NCBI GenBank assembly: GCA_964395115.1
Contig: CAYMZX010000001.1
Coordinates: 14,751-78,750, forward strand
DNA from: an uncultured Gammaproteobacteria bacterium
GTDB lineage: Bacteria; Patescibacteriota; Microgenomatia; UBA8517
Direction: 5' to 3'
DNA: 64,000 nt
Shown here: positions 10,633-63,490 of the stretch, one piece after another
How the letters are laid out: each line of letters opens with the position of its first letter
Numbering within the stretch: the stretch's first letter is position 1
The notes under the pieces: model-generated
The model's database searches: none
What the model was told of the DNA's origin: nothing
What the model saw: only the letters and a program-made list of their open reading frames with translations
Translations under genes and position numbers: made by a program

Positions 10633-11538
10633 ATGAGGAAAGGACCTTTAACTCCGAAGGGATTCCGAGACATCGAACCGGTGTTGGCAAAAAAACGTCG
10701 GCAGGTAGTTTCTACGCTCGGTGACGTTTTAGAAAAGTTCGGCTTTGTACCCTTGGAGACTCCCACCATCGAATTTGCCGATACGCTTTTGGGTAAATAT
10801 GGCGAGGAAGAAAAATTAATTTACCAATTCAAAGATAAGGGCGGACGAAAACTGGCATTAAGATACGATTTGACGGTACCCCTCGCTCGCTACGTAGCCA
10901 ATAACCTCGGCGTTCTTAACCCCACATTTCTGCGATACCAGGTCGGCCAGGTTTTTAGGGGCGAGAATCCTCAAAAAGGGCGATACCGAGAATTCACTCA
11001 GTTTGATTTCGACTCGGTAGGCAGCGACGATCTTGAGGAAGACGCCAAGGTAATTGCGGCTGCGATTACATGCCTTCGAGTTTTAGGTTTGAAAAGTGCC
11101 AAAATGGCAATAAACGATAGAAAAAACTTTATCGGTTTAGCGCCGGAAATTGTCCGAGCTATAGACAAAATAGAAAAGATCGGCAAAGAAATAGTTAAAA
11201 AAGATCTTTCGAATAAGGGTTTCTCTGATAAAGATGTCGCCGCCATTGATGAGATAGAAAATATCAAACCTAACCAAAATCTTAATAAAATATTCTCAAT
11301 ATTGGAAAACAAATATACTTTCAAGAACGGGAAAGATTTCTTTTTCGACCCGACGTTAGCTCGTGGACTCGATTACTACACTGGGGCTATTTTTGAGCTG
11401 AAACCTACGGGTAAGAAAAAAGGACTTTCTATTGGTGGCGGAGGCAGATACGACAATCTGATCGGAATATTCGCTAACCGAAACATTCCGGCGGTCGGCT
11501 TCTCATTCGGAATAGATAGACTAGTAGAATTGGTTTGA
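10633..11538 (+). CDS. hisS: HisRS-like class II aaRS catalytic core (HisS/HisZ family) lacking anticodon-binding domain
   Basis: Motif 1 region (RDIEPVLAKKRRQVVSTLGDVLEKFGFVPLETP), HisRS motif 2 (FRGENPQKGRYREFTQFDFD), motif 3 (GGGGRYDNLIGIF...[15 protein letters not shown]). The protein ends right after motif 3 at 301 aa. Confidence 0.75.
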   Translation: MRKGPLTPKGFRDIEPVLAKKRRQVVSTLGDVLEKFGFVPLETPTIEFADTLLGKYGEEEKLIYQFKDKGGRKLALRYDLTVPLARYVANNLGVLNPTFLRYQVGQVFRGENPQKGRYREFTQFDFDSVGSDDLEEDAKVIAAAITCLRVLGLKSAKMAINDRKNFIGLAPEIVRAIDKIEKIGKEIVKKDLSNKGFSDKDVAAIDEIENIKPNQNLNKIFSILENKYTFKNGKDFFFDPTLARGLDYYTGAIFELKPTGKKKGLSIGGGGRYDNLIGIFANRNIPAVGFSFGIDRLVELV

Positions 11539-12452
11539 AAATGAACCCCTATCGCCTACATGCCTATTTACTCCTCCTAATTGTTTCTTTCATTTGGGGC
11601 ATTGCTGGAGTGGTCATAAAATTTACCCTAGCCGCTTTCCCTCCTCTTATCTTTCTGGCTTACCGTTTTGCCCTTTCTGCTCTTATCGCTTTGGTTTCTT
11701 TTTTAATCATCGGTTACAAAATCCCCGATGATAAAAAAATTTTTTGGGCGTCGCTTGTCTACGGCTTCTTAACCTCGACCATAGCCTTGGGTCTTCTATT
11801 TTTCGGCACCGAAGAAACTACAGCAGTCGACGCAACCCTAATTTCAGCCATTGCCCCGATAACCATCGCGGCCGCCGGAGCGATTTTTTTAAAAGAACAT
11901 ATAACCTTTAGGGAAGGGGCAGGAATAACCATCGCTCTCTCGGGAACTATCATTACAATCGCCGAACCAATTCTTAAAAACGGCGCTAGTTATTCCGGTT
12001 TGGGAGGAAACCTTTTAGTCTTCGCTTCGGTCTTAACAAGTACAATAACCGCAGTCCTGGCCAAAATAATTTTGAGAAAGAAAGTCAATCCTCTGTATGC
12101 AACAAACGTTGCCTTCATTGTTGGTTTTGTTACCACTACCCCAATTGCTTTCTTAGTTCATGGTCCGTCTGAGATTTTTAAAACAATTGTTTCCGCTCCT
12201 TTATCCTACCAGTTAGGAGTTGCCTATATGGCCCTAATTTCTGGCACCTTAGGCTATACTCTGTGGCATAAAGCTGTAAAAACAATTGAGATTGGCGAAG
12301 CCGGTCTTTTTGCTTACCTTTATCCTGTTTTTGGAACCCCGCTAGCAGTTTTTTGGCTTAAAGAAAAAATAACCCTTCCTTTCCTTGTTGGTGCCTTAGT
12401 TATTTTAATTGGTGTTTTGATTGCCGAATACAAGAAAAAAAGATATAATTGA
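11535..12452 (+). CDS. EamA/DMT-family transporter
   Basis: Ten predicted transmembrane helices in two EamA-like halves. ATGA overlap with upstream gene. Confidence 0.7.
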
Positions 12453-34220: not shown

Positions 34221-36272
34221 TTACCCAACCCGATTTCTGATATTATTTTCGGTTTCTCCCCGCTTAGGATTCTTCCAGCTGGCCCATTTACAAGCGGGAA
34301 AGCGTGAACAGCCAAAAAATTTTTTGCCCTTCAGGGTCTTCTTTACAATCACCTCACCTTTATTACAGTTCGGGCATTTCAGCCCAATTTTTTCAAGAAA
34401 TTTTTCCGAATAATCGCATTTCGGGAAAAGTGAGCAAGAAACAAATTTTCCAAACTTTCCTATCCTTACAACTAATTCTCCTTTTCTGCATTTTGGGCAT
34501 TTTTGACCGAGTTTTTCAACTTCTATTTTTATTCTTTCCGAATGTTTTCCTACCATTTCCAACTTTTTTGAGAAAGGGTGCCAAAATTTTTTTATAGTTA
34601 CTACCCACCGTATTTGTCCGTTTGCTATTTTATCCAGATCATCCTCCATTTCTGCAGTAAAGCGATAGTCGAAAATGTCGGGAAAGTTTTCTACCAAAAA
34701 ATCATTTACTGCCACGCCAACTGGTGTCGGAACGAATTTACCGTCTTCTTTTTCGACATAGTTTCTGACTTGAATAGTTGAAATTATCGGCGCGTAAGTA
34801 GAAGGTCTACCAATCCCCAATTTTTCTAAAGTTTTGATAAGCGAGGCCTCATTATATCTTGGCGGAAATTCTGTAAATTTTTGCGACGAATCTATTTTTA
34901 CAAGCTTTAGGGCTTCGCCAACTGAAACTTGCGGTAGGTGGTTAGCTTTTTCTTCATTTTTTTTGTGGGGAATAACTTTTCGCCAACCATCAAATTTAAT
35001 TACCTGTCCTTTCGCCTTAAGCAGATATTCTTGAGAGCTTTTTGCCAGAACATTAATAACGGTTTCGTCATAAAGACTGGAAACCATTTGACTAGCTACC
35101 AATCTTCTCCAAATGAGGCCATAGAGAACTTGGGCATCACGGCCATATTTCTTGCTTTTTATTTTGTCGGACATCAGAGACAGTTTGGTCGGCCTGATTG
35201 CCTCGTGAGCCTCTTGAGCGACTTTAGATGTTGCCTTATAAAGTCGGGGTCTTTGGGACAAATAATCTTGGCCGTATAAATCTTTTATCAGTTTTCTGGC
35301 TTTTATCAAAGCGGTTTTGGAAATTGCCATGGAGTCAGTTCGGTGATAGGTAATAAGTCCTTTTTCGTATAGCCTTTGGGCAATAGCCATGGTCTTTTTG
35401 GCAGACCAGCCAAAAATCCTGGCCGCCGCCTGAGTCATGGTTGATGTGGTAAAGGGAGGGTACGGATTTTTTCTTATTTCCTTCTGGCTGATATCTAGAA
35501 TTGAGTATTCGGCTTTTTTTAGTTGTTCGGTAATCTTTTTTGCTTCTTCAGAATTTCTTACTTCAATCTTCTTGGTTTTAGTACCAATGAACCTCACAAT
35601 AAAGTTTTTATCTTTCCTATTTTTGGGTTTTACTTCACAAGTTATTTCCCAAAATTCTTCGGGTTTAAATTTTTCAATTTCTCTCTCTTTTTCAACAATA
35701 AGTCTGACTGCCACCGATTGGACCCTTCCTGCCGAAAGACCCCGTCTAATCTTTCTCCAAAGAAGGGGGGATAGTTTGTACCCCACTAATCTGTCCAAAA
35801 CTCTTCTCGCCATTTGGGCCTCAATCAGGTTTTTATCGAGATTCCTTGGTTTTGTAATCGCTTCTTCCACCGAATCTTTAGTAATCTCATGGAAGACAAT
35901 ACGCTGTAAAGTTAAGAACCGGGGAACTGAAGAATCTAGAAGGTTTTCTTTTGTTTCTTGTCTCCTGGGTTCTTTAGTCTCGCTAAGTATCTCTGCAACA
36001 TGCGAGGCAATTGCTTCTCCTTCCCGGTCCGGATCGGTGGCCAAATAAATCTTGTCGGCTTTTTGTGCCAACTTTTTAATTCTTTCGACAGACGCTTGAG
36101 CTTTAGCCACAGGTAAATATTTCGGTTTGAAATTATTCTGTATATCGATTCCTAATTCGCTTTTGGGGAGGTCCATAACATGACCCAGTGTCGCTTCTAC
36201 CGAATAGTCGTTACCTAAAAATTTTGATATGGTCCGAGCCTTAGTTGGAGACTCAACAATGATAAGATGCAT
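34221..36272 (-). CDS. topA: DNA topoisomerase I with C-terminal zinc ribbons
   Basis: Toprim N-terminus (LIIVESPTKARTISKFLG), catalytic Tyr region, three C4 zinc-ribbon repeats (CPKCRKGELV..., CPNCNKGEVIV..., GCSRFPACK). Confidence 0.9.
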   Translation of the reverse strand: MHLIIVESPTKARTISKFLGNDYSVEATLGHVMDLPKSELGIDIQNNFKPKYLPVAKAQASVERIKKLAQKADKIYLATDPDREGEAIASHVAEILSETKEPRRQETKENLLDSSVPRFLTLQRIVFHEITKDSVEEAITKPRNLDKNLIEAQMARRVLDRLVGYKLSPLLWRKIRRGLSAGRVQSVAVRLIVEKEREIEKFKPEEFWEITCEVKPKNRKDKNFIVRFIGTKTKKIEVRNSEEAKKITEQLKKAEYSILDISQKEIRKNPYPPFTTSTMTQAAARIFGWSAKKTMAIAQRLYEKGLITYHRTDSMAISKTALIKARKLIKDLYGQDYLSQRPRLYKATSKVAQEAHEAIRPTKLSLMSDKIKSKKYGRDAQVLYGLIWRRLVASQMVSSLYDETVINVLAKSSQEYLLKAKGQVIKFDGWRKVIPHKKNEEKANHLPQVSVGEALKLVKIDSSQKFTEFPPRYNEASLIKTLEKLGIGRPSTYAPIISTIQVRNYVEKEDGKFVPTPVGVAVNDFLVENFPDIFDYRFTAEMEDDLDKIANGQIRWVVTIKKFWHPFSKKLEMVGKHSERIKIEVEKLGQKCPKCRKGELVVRIGKFGKFVSCSLFPKCDYSEKFLEKIGLKCPNCNKGEVIVKKTLKGKKFFGCSRFPACKWASWKNPKRGETENNIRNRVG

Positions 36273-36825
36273 TGAAATACTCTATTATGTCGATGGGGTC
36301 TCTTGCAACATTGGCTCCCTGTTCTATCAACCAATCAGTTGCTTCAGAGCCTGGAATGGCGAAAACTTCTTTTCCGCCATTTGCTGCCCAAGAAGCTGTT
36401 GACAAAGTTCCGCTACGCCTTTTGCCTTCGACAACCAGAACCCCCTTTGCCAGAGCAACAATTGTCCTGTTTCTGACCAGAAAATTCTTAGCTAAAGGTT
36501 TTGTTCCTTTGGGGAAAATCGTAACGACGGCTCCTCTTTTAGCAATCTCCGCAGCCAGACCTTTGTTTTCCATAGGATAAATAATATCAAGACCAGATCC
36601 TAAAACAGCTATTGTTCTTCCTCCTAAAGAAAGTGCTGTCTGGTGCGCCACAGTATCCACCCCTTTCGCCAATCCTGAAACAATTGTATATCCTGCTTTT
36701 ACAAGCTCTGTAACAAATTTCTTTGTGAGTTTTTCCCCCCGCTTTGTCATTTTTCTTGCCCCAACTACCGCGATCGCCTTAGAATCGGACTTCAAAATTT
36801 TTCCTAAAATATAAAGTTTTTTCAT
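36253..36825 (-). CDS. dprA: DNA-processing protein DprA (Rossmann-fold core only)
   Basis: GARKMTKRGE...GLAKGVDTVAH...GSGLD...P.EN motifs of the DprA/Smf Rossmann domain. Conserved dprA-topA adjacency. Confidence 0.75.
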   Translation of the reverse strand: MKKLYILGKILKSDSKAIAVVGARKMTKRGEKLTKKFVTELVKAGYTIVSGLAKGVDTVAHQTALSLGGRTIAVLGSGLDIIYPMENKGLAAEIAKRGAVVTIFPKGTKPLAKNFLVRNRTIVALAKGVLVVEGKRRSGTLSTASWAANGGKEVFAIPGSEATDWLIEQGANVARDPIDIIEYFNASYHC

Positions 36826-56216: not shown

Positions 56217-57185
56217 CTATTTTATCACGAAGCGACTAGAAGAATCCAATTTTTTAGCAAAATTGTCTATCAGTTCCTCCAAAAAGGCATCTCTTTGCTT
56301 CATTTCCCAGCGAGGGAACCCAATCTGGTCGTTTATTTCGAAAATCCTGGGAACTCCGTCCTTTCCCATTCCAAAATCAATACTAAAAAGGGGGTTGTCA
56401 TATTTCTTGTAAAAATTTACAGCAATTTTATCGACAATTATTTTAATTTCATCCGGAACCAAACGGTAGTCAATCTCGGTCAAAACCCCACCGCCGGCGG
56501 CGTTGGCTTTAAAACTTCCTGTCGGGGGAACCCTGACATGTGACCAAACGGCTTTTCCATTTACAATGACAACCCTTAAATCGTGCATACTTAATGTGAC
56601 ATTAGAAATTCCGCCTGATGTATCTACAAATTCCTGGGCAATATATTTTGGATACTTTTCTAAAAAATTAAATTTGAGAGCTTTTGATTTTGGACCAATA
56701 AAAATGCCGATCCCTTTCAGACCGTTATACGGTTTCAGAACAACCCAGTCGCTCTTAATAAAAGAGAGCATTTTAGCCAAATTATCTTTCTTCCCCACCC
56801 AAAAAGTTTTGGGCATATATTTGCCGATTTGTCGATAGGCTTTCCATTTATCCCAGGCCAAAATTTTAAAATCCCGTCTATTAACCCAGATAACAGTCTC
56901 GTCATTTTCCGGCGGAAAGGCAATTCCGGCCGAACGGTCGTAAACCAAATCGATCCTGACCGGTTTAGTAATTTTTTCAAATTTACCCCGATAGAAGCGC
57001 CAGCTTTTGAGAAAATGACCATCTCCTTGATATGTCCGCCTCGTTAAAACATAAACTTCCCAACCTCTTTTTTGACACAACTCTAAAAATCGAAGATAAA
57101 CAGGAAGTTTGGCGCCGATATGGGCAAGAGGGAAATTTCCGACAAATGGTCTAGAAAACAGAATTCCGACTTTAGCTTTGGCCAT
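56217..57185 (-). CDS. ATP-grasp fold amidoligase (YheC/YheD or RimK-related)
   Basis: ATP-grasp motifs: LKPYNGLKGIGIFIG (Lys/Gly-loop), QEFVDTSGG, DLRVVIVNGKAV, FKANAAGGG (N-x3-GG), FSIDFGMGKDGVPRIFEIN (Mg/ATP E-x-N). Confidence 0.65.
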   Translation of the reverse strand: MAKAKVGILFSRPFVGNFPLAHIGAKLPVYLRFLELCQKRGWEVYVLTRRTYQGDGHFLKSWRFYRGKFEKITKPVRIDLVYDRSAGIAFPPENDETVIWVNRRDFKILAWDKWKAYRQIGKYMPKTFWVGKKDNLAKMLSFIKSDWVVLKPYNGLKGIGIFIGPKSKALKFNFLEKYPKYIAQEFVDTSGGISNVTLSMHDLRVVIVNGKAVWSHVRVPPTGSFKANAAGGGVLTEIDYRLVPDEIKIIVDKIAVNFYKKYDNPLFSIDFGMGKDGVPRIFEINDQIGFPRWEMKQRDAFLEELIDNFAKKLDSSSRFVIK

Positions 57186-58094
57186 TTATTTACATACTTC
57201 TGCCAAATAATCGGATAATTGGTCAATTTCTGGAGAAATTTTAGTATCATACGTCAAACCAGGTCCCCGGTTAACCTCGATCAACCAAATTTTATTGCTT
57301 CCCTTTTCGATGCCTATATCTACTCCGGCAATTTGAAAATTTAATGTTTTTACCCCTTTAATTGCGACTGAATAAATTTCTTTAGGGATTTTTGAAATTG
57401 GTAAAAACAGTTCTCTCGCCCCTAGGGCAATATTGTGGCGAAATTCATTTTTAGAAGTAATAAGCTTTTTTTCCCAAACCCTGACTTCATTGCCTAAAAC
57501 AAGAAGGCGGTATTCGTCTTTTATTTCGATATACTTTTGAAACATAAATTGATTTTCTTTTCCCTCTTTATCTTTAATCGGCAATTTGGCGAAATCTTTT
57601 TTAGACTTTATTTTGAAAACCCCTTGTCCCCTTTGCATTGAAAGCTCTTTAGCCACCAAAGGAAATCCAAATTTTTTTATTATCCGTGATTGGTATTGCT
57701 CAATGTTTGTTGACCAAACATAAATCGTTGGTACTACCGGCAACCCCGCCAGAGAGAGGCGGACCAAAGAAGTAAGCTTGCTGCCCAAGGGACCAATTTG
57801 AGACCAGCAACGGTCAATAAATTTAATCTTTGATCTTTCGAGAGGGAGAGCCAAAGTTCCGGCCAAATCAGAAAAAATTTTTCCTACCCGACGGAAGTAA
57901 ACCAAATCATAATTATTTATTGGTAATCTTTCAATTTCGACTGAAATATCTCCGTCATCGATTTCGAAATAGAGATCGGAAAATCTCGCCAGGGTGATTT
58001 GAAAATTTCTATCTGCCAATTTTCGGGCGATAAGCTCCGCCAAAAGCTCTTTTTTTGTGCCGATCTTATCTACCAAAATAAGAATTTTTTTCAT
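57186..58094 (-). CDS. RimK-like ATP-grasp ligase
   Basis: FPLVAKELSMQRGQGVFKIKSKKDF, QKYIEIKDEYRLLVLGNEV, RHNIALGA, IAGVDIGIEK...IWLIEVNRGPGL match the RimK/GSH-synthetase-type ATP-grasp. Confidence 0.7.
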   Translation of the reverse strand: MKKILILVDKIGTKKELLAELIARKLADRNFQITLARFSDLYFEIDDGDISVEIERLPINNYDLVYFRRVGKIFSDLAGTLALPLERSKIKFIDRCWSQIGPLGSKLTSLVRLSLAGLPVVPTIYVWSTNIEQYQSRIIKKFGFPLVAKELSMQRGQGVFKIKSKKDFAKLPIKDKEGKENQFMFQKYIEIKDEYRLLVLGNEVRVWEKKLITSKNEFRHNIALGARELFLPISKIPKEIYSVAIKGVKTLNFQIAGVDIGIEKGSNKIWLIEVNRGPGLTYDTKISPEIDQLSDYLAEVCK

Positions 58095-58096
58095 TT

Positions 58097-59392
58097 TTAA
58101 GCTCTGACCAAAAAACCTTTCAAATCCCGCCTTCCAATAATGACCGGCGAACGCAAATGTTCACGATTGGCAACGTTGGCAAGAGTAATAATTTTTCTTC
58201 CCGCCAGATAAAAAGTTAAGTTGACAACCTGTCTTTTCTCCCTACCCAAACCGCTTTTGTAATACTTAGTCCAAAGAACATTGCTTTTTCGAGTAATTCC
58301 GAGTCTTTCTGCCAAAGTTTTATCAATCGAAGTCCTCCAAGCTCCCGTGTCCAATTTCGCCGGTACCTCAATTTTCTTAGCGTTCGCCGAGACAATTTTT
58401 ATCTTTTCCCAGATATCCACTGTTTTTATTCCCTCTTCGGCCGCCACCCTATCAGCAAATCTTCCGGCGAAAAGTGCCTGGCCAATTTTTACACCCTGGT
58501 CTTCTCGACGAACATCTAACCCCTCAACTCTTTCCAATCGTTTTCTTAAACCTTCCATATTTGCCAGCTGGATCTGCAGACCGGGCTGGGCATTTAGTTC
58601 CAACACCATCGGCCCTTTTTCTGGGTGAAGGACAATATCAATCCCGGCATATCCCAATCCCGAGGCTGTACCAGCGGCAACTGCTGTTTCTAGTATCTTT
58701 GTCCAACTGGGTATTTTTATTCCTCGAAGTTTTCTTTTAGTTCCTGGTTTATAAACTATTTGTACTCCGTGCCAAATTGCTCGAGTAGTTATACCAGTGG
58801 CGATATCTATCCCGACTCCAATTGCTCCTTGGTGTAAGTTGGCTCGGCCCTGCGATTCTTTGGTTGGCAGCCTAAGCATCGCCATAATTGGCACCTTATT
58901 AAAAACAATAATCCTAATATCCGGGGTTCCTCTGTACGCATATTTTCTAAAAGTTTTATGACGGCCGACATATTCTTGAATAAACGCCACATCCGGTTCG
59001 TTCCGCATACTGTACGCCCCTTCGAGTATATCCAGTACATGCAACTTTAAATCCTCGATGGTCACTCTTTCTCTTTGGGTCGTAATCCATCCTTCAAAGG
59101 GCGGTTCGGCTTTCTTTTTAACAACAATTATTCCTTCTCCTCCCAAACCTCGGCTTGGTTTTAGAACAAACGAAGCAGGCAGATTTCCCCAATCATAATC
59201 TTCTACATCCGATGGCCGTCTGAACTTTTTAAGTATTTCGGGGTGCGGAATACCGTTGGCTTTAAGAACCCTGGCGGTTTGAATTTTTGAATCGGCAATT
59301 TTTTTGCCTTTCAGGGAATTATATCGGTAGGCGAAAAGCTGAGTGCGAGCGTTGAGGCCAAGAATCGTAGAAACATTCATAAGTTCCATCAA
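58097..59392 (-). CDS. ATP-grasp ligase (RimK-related) fused to C-terminal retropepsin-like aspartic peptidase domain (DUF785-type)
   Basis: N-terminal ~300 aa carry ATP-grasp motifs (VLKPSRGLGGEGIIVV, QEYVGRHKTFRKYAY, RANLHQGAIG, GYAGIDIVL...LELNAQPGL). The C-terminal ~120 aa contain AKLDTGAWRTSID (D-T-G-A aspartic protease signature) and a VIIGRRDLKGFLV flap-like end. Confidence 0.7.
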   Translation of the reverse strand: MMELMNVSTILGLNARTQLFAYRYNSLKGKKIADSKIQTARVLKANGIPHPEILKKFRRPSDVEDYDWGNLPASFVLKPSRGLGGEGIIVVKKKAEPPFEGWITTQRERVTIEDLKLHVLDILEGAYSMRNEPDVAFIQEYVGRHKTFRKYAYRGTPDIRIIVFNKVPIMAMLRLPTKESQGRANLHQGAIGVGIDIATGITTRAIWHGVQIVYKPGTKRKLRGIKIPSWTKILETAVAAGTASGLGYAGIDIVLHPEKGPMVLELNAQPGLQIQLANMEGLRKRLERVEGLDVRREDQGVKIGQALFAGRFADRVAAEEGIKTVDIWEKIKIVSANAKKIEVPAKLDTGAWRTSIDKTLAERLGITRKSNVLWTKYYKSGLGREKRQVVNLTFYLAGRKIITLANVANREHLRSPVIIGRRDLKGFLVRA

Positions 59393-60289
59393 TCAAGTTT
59401 TAATAAGCTTTCTAAATCTCCAAATCTCTAGGATCCTTAACCCAGAATACTTACCCAAGAGATAATCAAGGATCAATAGTCCCACCAGATACCACTCTGG
59501 ATTGAGAAGAGCAAATTCCTGAACCACTTTCAAGGTCAGGAAGAAATAGGACACGAGGGCCAAAATAAGCGTTTCTGTAGTCAGGTTGATGGCCGTTTTT
59601 ATGCTTTTTCCCAACTGAACCCGGATGAAATCTTCGGCCAGCAGAGCCATTATGAGAATTGGGAAAATAGACACATTGGTCAAATCGGGGTAGCGAATTA
59701 CCGGGGTAACAAAAAGAACGGCCATTACCGAAAAAGAAACAACCCAAAGAATAAGGGCCATACGCGGTAAGTACTGAAGTTTTATTTTCAATCTTCTCAA
59801 GAGCATTCTGGTCAGAGTAGAAACGGCAACGATAAGCAAAAAGAGAGCGATTCCCAAAATTGGCCGAGTCGCCAGAAAGACTACCGATAAGGCGGCTGGC
59901 AGGAAAATTCCAAATCCCCTAAGACCAACCAGATGTCTAGCGGCGGCAATAATTAAAGCAACTAAGGGCAGGAGAAGAAGTAAAACGATAGTGTTGGCTG
60001 GAACACCGGTTTTTACGGCTCCCCGTATGGCGTATTTTAAGGGATTGGCAGGCCACACAGGTCCCAATTTTTGGTCTTCTAAAAGTTCCTCCAATGGACC
60101 TAATGTCTCCTTGGTTTTTTGAGTCAAATCCGGCACTGGGGTTGGAAGCGGAGTCGGCTCAAAGATCGGGCTAGCGCTTGGACTCGGGCTGACCACAGCA
60201 AAGACTGGCTCGGTTAAAAAGCCTAAAAAAACCATAAACAACGCCAAAGAAAAAATAAGCCTGCGCATGGGAAATAATTTAGGAGTCAA
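59393..60289 (-). CDS. polytopic membrane protein with Pro-rich N-terminal segment (possibly 7TM partner of RimK-associated systems)
   Basis: Signal/anchor helix, a PSPSASPIFEPTPLPTPVP segment, then ~6-7 transmembrane helices. Assignment by architecture only. Confidence 0.4.
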   Translation of the reverse strand: MTPKLFPMRRLIFSLALFMVFLGFLTEPVFAVVSPSPSASPIFEPTPLPTPVPDLTQKTKETLGPLEELLEDQKLGPVWPANPLKYAIRGAVKTGVPANTIVLLLLLPLVALIIAAARHLVGLRGFGIFLPAALSVVFLATRPILGIALFLLIVAVSTLTRMLLRRLKIKLQYLPRMALILWVVSFSVMAVLFVTPVIRYPDLTNVSIFPILIMALLAEDFIRVQLGKSIKTAINLTTETLILALVSYFFLTLKVVQEFALLNPEWYLVGLLILDYLLGKYSGLRILEIWRFRKLIKT

Positions 60290-60297
60290 TTATACAA

Positions 60298-60597
60298 CTA
60301 CGGGGCGGTTTCTTTCCACCTCATCCTTCCTTTGGGTGAGGATTCGAGGGATTGAAGTCTTAAAGAGGATGTAAGAACTTGTTCGGCAAAAAAAAGACGG
60401 CTTTTTTTATTTTTCATCGAAGAAAGGGGGTCTCTTTTCCCTACAAAGTGTCTTATAATCCTGAATATCTCATCCTTGTTCTTGATATCATTCCAAAGTC
60501 TATTAGCAAGGCCAATTTTCTCTTTCTGGTTTCTGGCCATCCAATTAGCAATTCTTCTTAGGTCAGAGGCAGCATTTAGGTAATCGGCCTTCGTCAT
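60298..60597 (-). CDS. small protein with conserved C-terminal R-M-R-W-K-E-T-A-P tail
   Basis: 99 aa. Its last 9 residues and the underlying ~33 nt are repeated at the end of 60906..62474. ATGA overlap with the upstream 88-aa gene. Confidence 0.45.
   Translation of the reverse strand: MTKADYLNAASDLRRIANWMARNQKEKIGLANRLWNDIKNKDEIFRIIRHFVGKRDPLSSMKNKKSRLFFAEQVLTSSLRLQSLESSPKGRMRWKETAP
60309..60341. repeat. ~33-bp repeat copy A (3' end of 99-aa gene)
   Basis: TTCTTTCCACCTCATCCTTCCTTTGGGTGAGGA, about 85% identical to copy B at 60917-60949. Confidence 0.7.
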
Positions 60598-60860
60598 ATC
60601 AAAAAACGCTTCGCAGTTTTGATAAACTTTTTTCTAATTTCCGGATTTAGAATTTCCATTAGGTCAAATCCCCCGCCCCAGATATTTCTTTGGCGTGACC
60701 CATTTTTTATTAAAATGTTTTCTGAATCGGCATGAAGCTTTCCTCCCATCGCCATAACTTTTCTTTCAATATCAACAACGATTTTTATATAATCTTCAAA
60801 TTCTTCTGCCGCCATCAGGATGTCTTTTTTTGTGGCCTTTTTCTCCAAATAAACAATCAT
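60594..60860 (-). CDS. small hypothetical protein
   Basis: 88 aa, translationally coupled to the 99-aa gene. Confidence 0.4.
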   Translation of the reverse strand: MIVYLEKKATKKDILMAAEEFEDYIKIVVDIERKVMAMGGKLHADSENILIKNGSRQRNIWGGGFDLMEILNPEIRKKFIKTAKRFLI

Positions 60861-60905
60861 TCCTGAGCAATAATATCATAAAATTCGGTAGGGGCGTTTT
60901 TTATG

Positions 60906-62474
60906 TTATGGTGCTACTTCTTTCCACCTCATCCTTCTCTGGGTAAAGACTCTGGGGAAAGTGACAATAATTTCCGGGGCGTATTCAAAAAGTTCAGCCG
61001 GAGTATTCGTATTGGCGTCTCCCAAATCTCTTTCAAGAACAACTCCGTCATAAGCAACGACCGACCCTCTAACATAAAGCTGTTCGGTGCCGGCTCCGGT
61101 GCGGAACTCTCCCTCGGCAAAATAAATGCCTTCAAGCTCGGGGTTTGTTGGTTGGGAAACAGAAGGATCGACAAAAATGTTCCCTTTAAACCCATTGGCG
61201 TCTTTGCCGACTATTACCATAAAGAAGCCGCTTCCCGGATTTTGAATATTGATGCGCCCGTTAAGATAAAGGTCGGCTCCCTCTACAAAAAGAACAACCT
61301 TCCGGCTGCCGGTTAGGTTGACATTGCCGTTAATTGTCAAATCCCCCCGGGTTGCCCCGTTCCAGTGATACCAAACATAGCCCCGCGAAGGTGCCCCTCC
61401 CGAATTAAAAGTTCCCCCAGTAACCGGCGGGGTGAGTTCGTTGATAATGACATCGTCGGGAATTTGTCTCTTGAAATACGAGTAGTCGTAGGCTCTGCCG
61501 GTATATCTGGAGTTAACCAGCCAATTATAGGGATCTTCGGCCGCCCTTCCCGTTCCGGCTCCAGCTTGAAAATCGGCGATGGCCCCTCCGTAAGCCGGCA
61601 CTCCAGGAAATCCTCCGGCCCCCCTTAATCCAAAAACCGGATTACAGGCAGGGATAGTGCAAATAGTGGGAATTAACGAAATGATATTCCCGTTGGTGGT
61701 TACATCCGCATCTTTTACCTGCCACCAAGGACCGGGGGGGGTAACATTAACGGTTGAAGTGTCGTTGCAACGGGAAGATCCGCCCATAATGACATCGGCC
61801 CTGACGGTGGTTGAGCCGGGGAAAACCCCGGTGGCCGAAGTGGAATAGACAGCGGTTGTGTCCGAAGCGGGGTTAACCGTCGCAATCCCGGTATTTGCCG
61901 AAGCGAAGTTTACCTGGCTGACGGTGCCTGAACCTATGGTTACGCTGGCGGTAAGTTCAACAGCCGAACCCACCTGGGTGGTAACGGTATTGGGAGTCAA
62001 ATCAACCGTGCAAGAAGGAGTGGGGGTAGGAGCTGGGGTTGGAGTGGGCGCGGGAGTATCTTCTCTGAGACAGCAACCTGTTGTGTAGGAAAATTCTGGG
62101 GCGCACGTGGTTTTACTCGAATTAATAATACAACCTGATTGCCATTGCGTTCCTGCTCTTTGAAGGTAGGACACAGGGTAAATTGTAACACGACACGATA
62201 TATTGTTAGGACTACTTAAACAGTTCCTACTACCACCCCCCATACAGGACCACCACCCATTGCAGCCCCATAATTCATTATTAGAGCATTGAAATGTGTT
62301 ACCATTTAAAAAACATTTCTTTGCATTTATATTCACCCTAATGGTATAATCAGGAATACCGCAATACCAACCTACTCCACATGCTTGGTCGGCAAAAACG
62401 GTATTAGCTCGATTTATAAAAAAGAAAAGGATTAATACTAAGACCTTTAATAAAGCAGAATATATTCGCCTCAT
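60906..62474 (-). CDS. secreted Cys-rich protein with Pro/Thr linker, Ig-like (Big_2-type) domain, beta-rich C-terminal domain and R-M-R-W-K-E-V-A-P tail
   Basis: Signal peptide MRRIYSALLKVLVLILFFFINRANTVFA, a ~140-aa region with more than 16 Cys, TPAPTPTPAPTPTPS linker, an Ig-like segment (TVDLTPNTVTTQVGSAVELTASV...), repetitive beta-helix-like G/N-rich segment. Confidence 0.5.
   Translation of the reverse strand: MRRIYSALLKVLVLILFFFINRANTVFADQACGVGWYCGIPDYTIRVNINAKKCFLNGNTFQCSNNELWGCNGWWSCMGGGSRNCLSSPNNISCRVTIYPVSYLQRAGTQWQSGCIINSSKTTCAPEFSYTTGCCLREDTPAPTPTPAPTPTPSCTVDLTPNTVTTQVGSAVELTASVTIGSGTVSQVNFASANTGIATVNPASDTTAVYSTSATGVFPGSTTVRADVIMGGSSRCNDTSTVNVTPPGPWWQVKDADVTTNGNIISLIPTICTIPACNPVFGLRGAGGFPGVPAYGGAIADFQAGAGTGRAAEDPYNWLVNSRYTGRAYDYSYFKRQIPDDVIINELTPPVTGGTFNSGGAPSRGYVWYHWNGATRGDLTINGNVNLTGSRKVVLFVEGADLYLNGRINIQNPGSGFFMVIVGKDANGFKGNIFVDPSVSQPTNPELEGIYFAEGEFRTGAGTEQLYVRGSVVAYDGVVLERDLGDANTNTPAELFEYAPEIIVTFPRVFTQRRMRWKEVAP
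60917..60949. repeat. ~33-bp repeat copy B (3' end of 522-aa gene)
   Basis: CTTCTTTCCACCTCATCCTTCTCTGGGTAAAGA; encodes the ...RRMRWKEVAP C-terminus. Confidence 0.7.
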
Positions 62475-62485
62475 GTTTTTTAACT

Positions 62486-63091
62486 TTAAAGACTAATCTG
62501 GGAAATTTGAATGAAATATTCGCCTTTAGGAAATCCACTTTTTTCCAATAATGCTTTCTTCAGCTTTTCAATAAAAATCAGATAAGATTCTGTCTGCTCA
62601 CTACTATCTAACATTTGAAAGTTTTTATCCTGCGTCACGATAAAAAGCTCGAGTAAATCTCCCCTCTTGATATTACTAATAACTTCTCCCGGGGGGGTAA
62701 GCTCACATCCTTTTGTGTTCGCACACACTCCAACTAAGGGATTTCTTCCTCCCAGCCTAGCATTATAAGCGTGCATCCTCCCGAATTTGTCGAAATACCC
62801 TATTTTTAGGAAAGCCTCATTCTCTGAAATATTTTGAACTTTTGCGATGCAAGCAATTGTAGTCCACGCTTGAAACTCTGCATCCCCAAACTCATAGACA
62901 TTGGACAATACTCCTGTAGAATAAGGCCGGCCAAAGATATCTCTACATACTAGTACTTTTTCCGTAACCAAAATTCCTAAAATGAAGAAAAAAATAACCA
63001 AAAATAATAACGCCCCAATAATCAGTAAAGTCGCTTTACTAGATTTGTCCTTAGATTGTTCGGAGCTAATGTTTTTTCCGATTTCCATCAA
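62486..63091 (-). CDS. membrane-anchored hypothetical protein
   Basis: N-terminal transmembrane helix (LLIIGALLFLVIFFFILGILV) then a ~150-aa domain with several Cys. Confidence 0.4.
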   Translation of the reverse strand: MMEIGKNISSEQSKDKSSKATLLIIGALLFLVIFFFILGILVTEKVLVCRDIFGRPYSTGVLSNVYEFGDAEFQAWTTIACIAKVQNISENEAFLKIGYFDKFGRMHAYNARLGGRNPLVGVCANTKGCELTPPGEVISNIKRGDLLELFIVTQDKNFQMLDSSEQTESYLIFIEKLKKALLEKSGFPKGEYFIQISQISL

Positions 63092-63268
63092 TTTTTAGTA
63101 TGACGAAAACCTGGAACGATTTCAATAGTTTTTAATTTTAATTTTTGAATATTGAAGATTTACCCGCGCTCTTTAGGAGATATCGTATCACTACCCCTTT
63201 TTTCCTGCATTCCTAAAAGCCAGGGGGGCCGGCTTCCTTTTTATGCGCGGAGCGAGTTAAGAAAGAAG

Positions 63269-63490
63269 TTACTCTGTTTTCTCTTGCATTCCTAATAACC
63301 AGAGTACTGCTTCTTTCTTATAGCGCCGGTCGCCTCGTGAATTAATCCTGATTGCCGGTAGCTTTCCTCGCTTTCCCCAGCGCTTGATGGTCAAGGGTGA
63401 AACGCGCAGAAGCTCGGCCACCTCCCGCACCGTAAGAAGGTCAGGAAGTTCTTCGAGTCTTATCTTTTTCTTCATCCCCTCTTCAGTCAT
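63269..63490 (-). CDS. excisionase/MerR-superfamily helix-turn-helix DNA-binding protein
   Basis: LLTVREVAELLRVSPLTIKRWGKRGKLPAIRI matches the excisionase-family HTH. Confidence 0.6.
   Translation of the reverse strand: MTEEGMKKKIRLEELPDLLTVREVAELLRVSPLTIKRWGKRGKLPAIRINSRGDRRYKKEAVLWLLGMQEKTE

Follow-up and report, generated by a model that had tools for sequence, protein, structure and literature searches.

Elements that integrate at the 3' end of a gene leave displaced or duplicated gene ends at their integration sites, as with e14 in icd and with the integrative and conjugative elements (ICEs) ICESt1/ICESt3 and cis-mobilizable elements (CIMEs) at fda. Homology-facilitated illegitimate recombination, reportedly described by de Vries and Wackernagel in 2002, has been observed in laboratory crosses with Acinetobacter and Streptococcus, where recipient DNA is usually deleted. 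We know of no described natural hotspot that recurs and leaves serial duplicated gene ends. CIMEs have lost their integrase while keeping attL and attR, and tandem accretion at a gene-end att site has been documented (PMC5704250). Here, a stretch of 64,000 nucleotides (hereafter the window) from contig CAYMZX010000001.1 of assembly GCA_964395115.1 was analysed, in which the last codons of a gene for a secreted protein of 522 amino acids (aa) recur at the end of a neighbouring gene for a 99-aa protein. Comparison with related genomes indicates that the second copy, copy A, was left stranded as a gene end on the distal edge of inserted DNA, in a hotspot behind a conserved gene. As at the gene-end sites of ICEs, integrative and mobilizable elements (IMEs) and CIMEs (ICESt1/ICESt3, fda; further streptococcal targets; e14, icd), an intact gene stands here with a non-functional end copy on its far side. 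Also as in ICE/CIME accretion, several repeats can stand in series, with integrase-less units flanked by repeats.

A repeated gene end in the window

The features that make up the repeat pair are listed below; a family-gene end separated from its gene is termed an orphan throughout.

60906-62474, minus strand: complete gene of the 'WKEVAP-tail' family, 522 aa (open reading frame (ORF), Big_2 match, homologues and AlphaFold 2 model)
60906-60949, minus strand: copy B, native 3' end of the family gene including the stop codon (core at 60918-60937)
60352-60597, minus strand: second gene between the repeats, residues 1-82 of an '86-aa family' member (ending at ...SSLRLQ), with the native final codons and stop missing
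60298-60353, minus strand: copy A, read as an orphan family-gene 3' end of ~56 nt (core at 60310-60329; alignment with nine gene ends/orphans)

An exact 20-bp core, TTCTTTCCACCTCATCCTTC, was found twice in the 64-kb window (60310-60329 and 60918-60937, + strand). A chance repeat could be ruled out, as no match to the core was seen in 100 dinucleotide-preserving shuffles even with up to three mismatches allowed. Repeat searching of the window lengthened the pair to 31 nt (84% identity, copies 608 bp apart), and no third copy of either the repeat DNA or the peptide tail was present in the window. The first-pass annotation of this DNA had placed a 33-mer at two gene ends; the repeat itself was borne out, with copy B correctly located at 60917-60949 and copy A off by one (60310-60342, not 60309-60341). 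ORF translation agreed with its statement that both copies are the stop-proximal ends of minus-strand genes, copy A closing the 99-aa ORF (60298-60597) with RMRWKETAP and a stop codon, and copy B closing the 522-aa ORF (60906-62474) with RMRWKEVAP and a stop codon. It was also right that the remainder of the two proteins is unrelated: the longer is secreted and has an Ig-like domain, the shorter is a member of a small 86-aa family, and only the last 9-18 residues are held in common.

The silent and conservative substitutions that had been described between the copies were found as well. Over the last four codons, the copies differ by GTA/ACC (V/T), GCA/GCC and CCA/CCG (both silent), and TAA/TAG. 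Beyond the 20-bp core they diverge by protein-like substitutions (AGA/CGA, GTC/ATC and TTT/CTC), which is the pattern expected of two alleles that each once ended a working gene. The silent differences would be explained if both copies once ended working family genes in different lineages. No signal for RNA structure or a terminator was detected in the repeat, with both copies folding like shuffled sequence (z = +0.42 and -1.49 for the orphan and gene-end regions, respectively).

To establish which protein the tail belongs to, homologues of both were compared. The 522-aa protein comprises a signal/transmembrane (TM) helix, a Cys-rich region, an Ig-like (Big_2) domain and a conserved C-terminal domain of ~280-370 aa (PWWQVKDADV ... 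PAELFEYAPD ...), which in the window protein ends in RMRWKEVAP. Homologues numbered 144 at E <= 1e-3, with query coverage of 52-100% among the 120 listed; they came from Patescibacteria, Microgenomates and Woesebacteria, and some were labelled 'Ig-like domain-containing protein'. A W-x-E-x-x-P ending was present in 118 of the 120 listed homologues, RWKEVAP being the commonest form (44), and the window protein shows both the C-terminal-domain homology and the W-x-E-[VI]-x-P end of the family. When the last 33 aa were used as a query against 1.84 billion representative proteins, 41 matches were returned, 39 of them at the last residues of proteins of family-typical length (eight short ones were inspected and are family fragments); the other two were repetitive and internal.

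The 99-aa protein gave a different picture. Its eight homologues (P0122-P0129) are 86-95 aa long and end in ...SSLRLQ(N/H/S)xx; none of the eight carries an RMRWKE tail, and their stops come ~13 codons earlier. The usual end of this family (...FFAEQxLxSSLRLQxxx and stop, at ~86 aa) is replaced in the window by 17 extra codons, which marks the 99-aa ORF as an 86-aa-family member with an altered 3' end. Since the tail is found in 118 of 120 members of the one family and is absent from homologues of the other, the sequences indicate that RMRWKEVAP is the native C-terminus of the 522-aa family and is foreign to the 86-aa family.

The manner in which the tail was acquired could be read from copy A. 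Alignment with nine gene ends/orphans of relatives showed homology to family-gene ends over ~56 nt, back to ~60353, with an ancestral frame of S-IPRILTQRRMRWKETAP and stop, the counterpart in the resident gene being TFPRVFTQRRMRWKEVAP and stop. The small gene is fused to copy A directly after ...LRLQ. A single extra base at 60329/60330 shifts the frame of the remnant, so that the 99-aa ORF passes through it out of frame as SLESSPKG and then enters the old frame for its last nine codons, RMRWKETAP. On this alignment, copy A is a short, already damaged remnant of another family-gene end. With the stop of the small gene lost and one nucleotide inserted in the remnant, the shared nonapeptide is an accident of a recombination scar and not a module.

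These results run counter to the portable C-terminal module, selected on two proteins, that had been proposed in the first-pass annotation, in which RMRWKE[TV]AP would act as a recognition or sorting tag. Such a tag would fit the strong conservation of the tail within the 522-aa family, and contigs of five metagenomic samples encode the identical 99-aa fusion. Samples with exactly this locus are JGI 3300022548, 3300025794 and 3300010308, ENA ERZ27245602 and SRR5216256. As modelled by AlphaFold, the last ten residues (513-522; 60906-60938) have a predicted local distance difference test score (pLDDT) below 50, whereas the preceding C-terminal domain is confidently modelled; the native tail may accordingly be a flexible recognition peptide within the 522-aa family. 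As a tag shared by both proteins, however, it is contradicted by the tailless homologues (8/8) and by a fusion that relies on a lost stop and a frameshifting extra base. No unrelated protein among the 1.84 billion representatives carries the motif at its C-terminus, and the orphans of other genomes are mostly not joined to any gene. Inspection of the ...RRMRWKEVAP end showed no TM helix or other hydrophobic stretch and no known C-terminal sorting signal (LPXTG, PEP-CTERM or similar). A functional tag on both proteins is therefore considered extremely improbable. The alternative that had been offered beside it, a recombination footprint or cassette boundary, is supported by the comparative evidence presented below.

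Searches for structural relatives of the family protein matched only its Ig-like part, by sequence and by fold; for the C-terminal domain, no relative of solved structure was matched by either. In several genomes, whose loci are given L numbers here, the family gene converges on a type IV pilus operon (L068, 11605-21608; L035, 15796 onward; L047, 15510 onward) with six or seven prepilin-like genes, a prepilin peptidase, PilC and PilB/PilT. This arrangement suggests that the family protein is pilus-associated.

The site in related genomes

The surroundings of the repeat pair comprise the following features.

59393-60268, minus strand: 7TM_transglut membrane protein gene, first of an operon with ATP-grasp genes (PF14402, E=1e-24)
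60289-60318, minus strand: promoter-like site of the 7TM operon (consensus scan, 10/12; -35 TGGAAA at 60313-60318, 18-nt spacer, -10 TATAAT at 60289-60294)
60594-60860, minus strand: DUF5674 protein gene, 88 aa, first between the repeats (PF18924, E=1e-17)
62486-63091, minus strand: 201-aa gene, conserved upstream partner of the family gene (same pair in L068 and L006)
60305-63268, minus strand: block absent from the nearest relatives, comprising the 201-aa gene, the family gene, two small genes and most of the orphan (blastn breaks)

In five relatives (L077, L095, L096, L119 and L145), the 7TM_transglut operon comes immediately after the end of a complete family gene. Because a full gene end precedes the same operon in all five, copy A occupies what is the site of a family-gene end, and synteny points to 7TM_transglut as the ancestral downstream neighbour of the family gene. 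In L068, the closest full-length orthologue, the stop of the family gene overlaps the end of the convergent type IV pilus operon and nothing is inserted; the pair of upstream gene and family gene is present there (204 aa + 535 aa) and in L006. In the nearest relatives, L072-L074 (7TM protein 86% identical), the whole block is missing, and an HTH_17 gene is followed by 22 bp and then the 7TM promoter. The spacer of L073 (9945-9967, AAAGTAGAGAATTTACCCCCCGAAGTAG) might hold a degenerate orphan.

The operon itself (56217-60268, -) contains the 7TM_transglut gene (with a weak RloB match), an ATPgrasp_ST gene with a C-terminal aspartyl-protease-like part and a RimK-like gene, ORF 56217-57185 being ATP-grasp-like by appearance; it is syntenic in many Microgenomates. 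The DUF5674 ORF scored 64.6 bits against a Pfam cut-off of 27, and a DUF5674 gene also follows the family gene in L003, L015 and L022. Base composition was uninformative, with 36-54% GC in the inserted block and 42% over the window. A 26-nt direct repeat of 85% identity, its copies 79 bp apart (63198-63223 and 63277-63302), was also noted; the second copy overlaps the 3' end of an HTH_17/MerR-like gene (63269-63490), and a short way downstream of that gene is the first copy.

The -35 box of the promoter-like site, TGGAAA, lies inside the orphan and is formed by its W-K codons, a pattern match alone. The orphan could have been kept if it supplied the -35 of the promoter of the 7TM_transglut operon, an account that concerns its persistence and not its origin and is compatible with the explanation preferred below. 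The spacing and sequence are sigma-70-like (TGGAAA-18 nt-TATAAT, 10/12 positions), L028 has the same layout (TGGAGA-17 nt-TATAAT), and extended -10 boxes occur 5-25 nt past several orphans. However, the distance from stop codon to -10 box differs widely among loci, at unoccupied sites such as L077 and L096 a separate promoter follows the stop codon, and sites were found by the scan at about the shuffled level (2 vs 1.6 expected). Retention for this reason is judged quite improbable. Promoter carriage as a general cause was rejected, the stop-to--10 spacing being too variable across loci.

Orphan gene ends recur downstream of family genes

For a survey of orphans, 57 genome loci were fetched around family genes and subjected to a six-frame peptide scan, then to an independent blastn-short scan. 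Orphans of 13-120 bp were found in about 12 other Microgenomates/Woesebacteria genomes, with up to three in series. The peptide scan gave those of L009, L010, L011, L013/L028, L015, L035, L036 (three), L039, L045 (two), L047, L053 and L059, and the blastn-short scan added one in L008. In L001, three ...RWKEVAP orphan ends, each with its stop, divide unrelated gene groups downstream of a 681-aa family gene. All orphans lay downstream of a complete gene and on the same strand (~390 kb of flank scanned on each side); upstream matches were complete paralogues only, and control queries from deeper in the gene returned chance-level matches, except where the orphan was long.

The two edges of the homology behave differently. 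With the exception of L015, the right edge falls at the stop codon or 0-11 bp past it, whereas the left edge varies, giving lengths of 13 to 120 bp. In L008, L009 and L047, the gene-end repeats are near-identical over ~100-120 bp. Most orphans are joined to no gene. Several orphans directly adjoin the ancestral neighbour, which is 7TM_transglut for the window and L008 and the pilin operon for L035 and L047. L045 differs in that its last orphan is separated from 7TM_transglut by a peptidase M16 gene. Unoccupied sites were seen in L068, L077, L095, L096, L119 and L145. In the exceptional L015, a direct repeat of ~115 bp (11106-11220 and 11766-11880) covers 26 bp of the gene end together with all 76 bp of the spacer and ATGATTGTTTATTT, the last being the first 14 nt common to the DUF5674 and His_Phos_1 genes, both of which begin MIVY.

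Across the orphans, differences from the gene end were 35 synonymous and 13 non-synonymous. Mostly synonymous differences fit two alleles that each evolved in a working gene.

One way to obtain such remnants is decay of a tandem paralogue, in which a second family gene of the window would have been deleted save for its last 56 nt, the other orphans being deletion remnants likewise. Close paralogues do exist, such as the 650-aa and 510-aa genes in L003, and the window orphan has diverged from the resident end outside the 20-bp core by protein-like substitutions. Against this, remnants never derive from the middle or 5' part of the gene. The lengths of tail ORFs are bimodal: those within the loci have 10-74 codons, with ~120 bp as the longest homology, and complete genes have at least 390 codons. 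Random deletion end-points would almost never give remnants confined in this way to the extreme gene end. Orphans were moreover found only downstream of a complete gene, and those of L008, L009 and L047 are near-identical to the resident end. Deletion of paralogues is considered an improbable source of the orphans.

Most of the loci are contigs of metagenome-assembled genomes (MAGs), in which repeats longer than the assembler's k are under-sampled. Several MAG contigs start within the last 100-400 bp of a family gene (L005, 1-189; L051, 7-384; L053, 3-137; L060, 2-103), and contig breaks inside the tail would be expected if repeated gene ends exceed the assembler's k. In the three complete chromosomes, the family gene maps to a fractional position of about 0.70-0.75 or 0.30 along the record, and no orphan was found in any of them. 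A dif/Xer site at the replication terminus was rejected, as the gene is not opposite the record start, a weak argument given that the origin was not mapped.

Cargo of the slot and search for recombinases

The genes found in the slot, between a family gene and its ancestral neighbour, are varied.

L001: DUF6922 + AbiEii
L001 and L045: radical SAM/SPASM cluster, orphan-flanked in both
L008: isoprenoid genes
L009: nucleotide-metabolism genes
L010 and L036 (twice): MNT/HepT toxin-antitoxin pairs (in L010, only the nucleotidyltransferase identified)
L011: YcaO + nitroreductase
L013: DUF5678 + aspartyl-protease-like
L035 and L045: sugar-modifying genes
L036: Fic, VTC-domain, CYTH, HIT, NUDIX, glycosyltransferase and deacetylase
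L047: AMP-binding, C39 peptidase and arginine deiminase-like genes

The radical SAM/SPASM cluster is a three-gene unit (L001, 1573-4211; L045, 16970-19590, equivalent to L070, 17675-20217) of a radical SAM/SPASM enzyme, a small Cys/Pro-rich ORF and a 293-319-aa protein encoded on the opposite strand, resembling a locus of the type that makes ribosomally synthesized and post-translationally modified peptides (RiPPs). Inserts in the same slot without an orphan were found in L124, L125, L097 and L117, and as the second insert of L013. In the last case, comparison with L028 (92% identical) showed a 1473-bp segment (L013, 11736-13208; absent at L028, 7972-7986) that begins exactly past the stop codon of the orphan and has no second orphan; it carries DUF5674 and a 71-aa gene, plus three small genes in the opposite orientation.

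Gene-end direct repeats flank the insert in the window and in about 12 other genomes, as would be seen with an integrative element. Pfam searches of the insert ORFs tested at 16 loci, L008, L009 and L047 among them, revealed no integrase or transposase in the inserts or beside them. A recombinase motif scan of 1.86 Mb of loci returned only four Xer-like genes, all 4.6-6 kb away and two of them at loci without an orphan. These Xer-like tyrosine recombinase genes (L013, ~17104; L021, ~16086; L028, ~11910; L038, ~15639) belong to a single subclade, where they lie downstream of the family gene both at loci with orphans and at loci without. No cognate element bearing an integrase was found at the site in the 57 genome loci, 80 metagenome loci or IMG/VR. 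In IMG/VR viral contigs, the tail pattern matched twice, against about 3.5 matches expected by chance on our estimate; a phage- or plasmid-borne gene end was rejected on the chance-level occurrence of the degenerate tail pattern there.

These results bear on the main rival explanation, site-specific recombination, in which the 3' end of the gene would be an attachment site and the inserts integrase-less cassettes or decayed elements moved in trans. Inserts would then accumulate in tandem, as in the documented ICE/IME/CIME accretion noted above, or by exploiting an integron or Xer system. The right edge fixed at the gene end is in keeping with this, and repeats of 13-120 bp, many of them 20-37 bp, are typical of att identity blocks. 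The same radical SAM cassette is bounded by orphans in L001 and L045, the orphan shared by L035 and L036 is better conserved than the family gene, and the small toxin-antitoxin cargo is like that of chromosomal integron cassettes. With repeats present and no integrase found, the structure is also compatible with a CIME, an element that has shed its genes for integration and transfer and is mobilised through the integrase of a related one. Yet neither the Pfam searches nor IMG/VR yielded a recombinase or an element to go with the site, and the few Xer-like genes are distant. Furthermore, the wobble positions of the supposed site vary freely among genomes with no invariant sub-block, the repeat lacks inverted-repeat or hairpin character, and many inserts in the same slot lack a second repeat. 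This last feature is unlike ICEs and IMEs, as are a repeat length that varies continuously with conservation at the protein level only, and a setting in a lineage of the candidate phyla radiation (CPR) with a gene for a secreted protein, linked to pilus genes, as target. On balance, site-specific recombination is thought rather unlikely.

Proposed recombination anchored in the conserved gene end

The explanation that we prefer, with a probability of roughly 0.55, is that recombination anchored in the conserved gene end imports a new end with its trailing genes and has an imprecise distal joint. The conserved 3' part of the family gene would serve as a homology anchor for incoming DNA from related lineages, and the donor strand would replace the recipient gene through its end, bringing along the downstream genes of the donor. 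The far end would be joined imprecisely, by homology-facilitated illegitimate recombination. Where this joint fell a few to ~120 bp before the recipient stop, the original gene end would be left as an orphan beside its original neighbour. Repeated events would stack inserts, each closed by an orphan, and the orphans could then be used as short homologies for the loss or exchange of inserts.

Such anchored import would account for the one-sided orphans, the arbitrary cargo, the absence of recombinases and the synonymous excess. Since homology between donor and recipient would end with the coding sequence, the right edge would be fixed and the left edge variable. Inserts without an orphan are expected with an imprecise joint, and not under obligatory att duplication. 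In homology-facilitated illegitimate recombination, as proposed here, one anchor and an imprecise joint capture DNA beside a conserved gene; any cargo can be taken, no recombinase of its own is needed, and the position of the joint sets the outcome. Saccharibacteria, which are a different CPR lineage, have been shown to be naturally competent (PMC10187176). Transformation-related genes in the bacteria studied here include DprA and the type IV pilus genes, a DprA gene being present in the window (36253-36825, -; PF02481, E=3e-57). In L053 (2379-4520), an orphan array adjoins ComM-, YraN- and DprA-like genes, as judged by sequence inspection only.

Several observations weigh against anchored import. 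No donor-recipient pair was identified, so that neither the illegitimate joint nor microhomology at it can be demonstrated. Orphan lengths cluster at 20-37 bp, which is also compatible with a defined crossover site. The radical SAM/SPASM insert is flanked by orphans on both sides in L001 and L045, in inserts that are ~70% identical, and is cassette-like in this respect. The orphan at L035 15745-15792 and L036 6900-6947 (KLGFRxTRWSEVAP and stop) is 90% identical, compared with 78% for the family genes, and its flanking cargo differs; that it surpasses the gene in identity is a hint that the orphan itself has been conserved or reused. The synonymous excess is partly inflated, as most orphans were found by a peptide pattern, and outside the six pattern codons a hand tally gave about 11 synonymous vs 10 non-synonymous differences. 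The cargo of L008 and L009 resembles ordinary metabolic genes, and some events may be internal rearrangements and not imports. Competence has, to our knowledge, not been shown for Microgenomates.

Comparison with other repeat-based systems

Like this locus, an integron array is a series of small units downstream of one fixed point; each unit ends in a copy of a short repeat, and many consist of toxin-antitoxin genes or genes of unknown function. Unlike in integrons, the fixed point here is the end of a structural gene and not attI, and the cargo includes multi-gene metabolic clusters of 4-6 kb. An integron was rejected, as no intI or tyrosine recombinase is next to the family gene in the window or the annotated loci. 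The repeat was likewise rejected as attC: no hairpin folding beyond that of shuffled sequence was seen (the z values of +0.42 and -1.49 given above), and orphans can be as short as 13-22 nt. A diversity-generating retroelement was also rejected, there being no reverse transcriptase domain in neighbouring genes and mismatches falling at wobble positions and involving all base types, where such an element would show them at template adenines only.

The orphan toxin modules downstream of rhs/cdiA and the silent pilS copies of Neisseria offer a further likeness, as truncated 3' copies of a surface-protein gene follow the expressed gene and share with it a constant segment through which recombination can occur. 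There, that segment is followed by a variable coding tip that is swapped in, whereas the orphan here is the invariant end plus stop, with nothing to swap. Taken together, the structure resembles displaced gene ends at integration sites with tandem accretion and the outcome an integron array, and the locus fails the defining tests of an integrase-bearing element and of an integron. A limited literature search found no published account of such a hotspot in CPR bacteria.

Implications

For annotation, the tail of the 99-aa protein is a scar, and a label as a shared domain or tag would be wrong; short ...WKEVAP ORFs downstream of a family gene should be flagged as remnants. For assembly, such repeats appear to break MAG contigs at the gene end. 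CPR genomes are very small, and their acquisition of accessory genes is little understood. The scars of the slot record the order of events and so offer a tractable handle on gene flow in uncultivated lineages, and the slot bears on the route of that flow, whether transformation with general recombination or an unrecognised site-specific system. As a tentative extension, the gene end, which often lies near type IV pilus genes, could be a recombinase-free platform for gene capture in Microgenomates/Woesebacteria. Every uptake anchored there would add cargo and leave one more orphan, and the orphans would serve as portable homology through which lineages lose, regain and exchange cargo units. 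If true, general recombination would here be maintaining the equivalent of an integron array in bacteria with tiny genomes.

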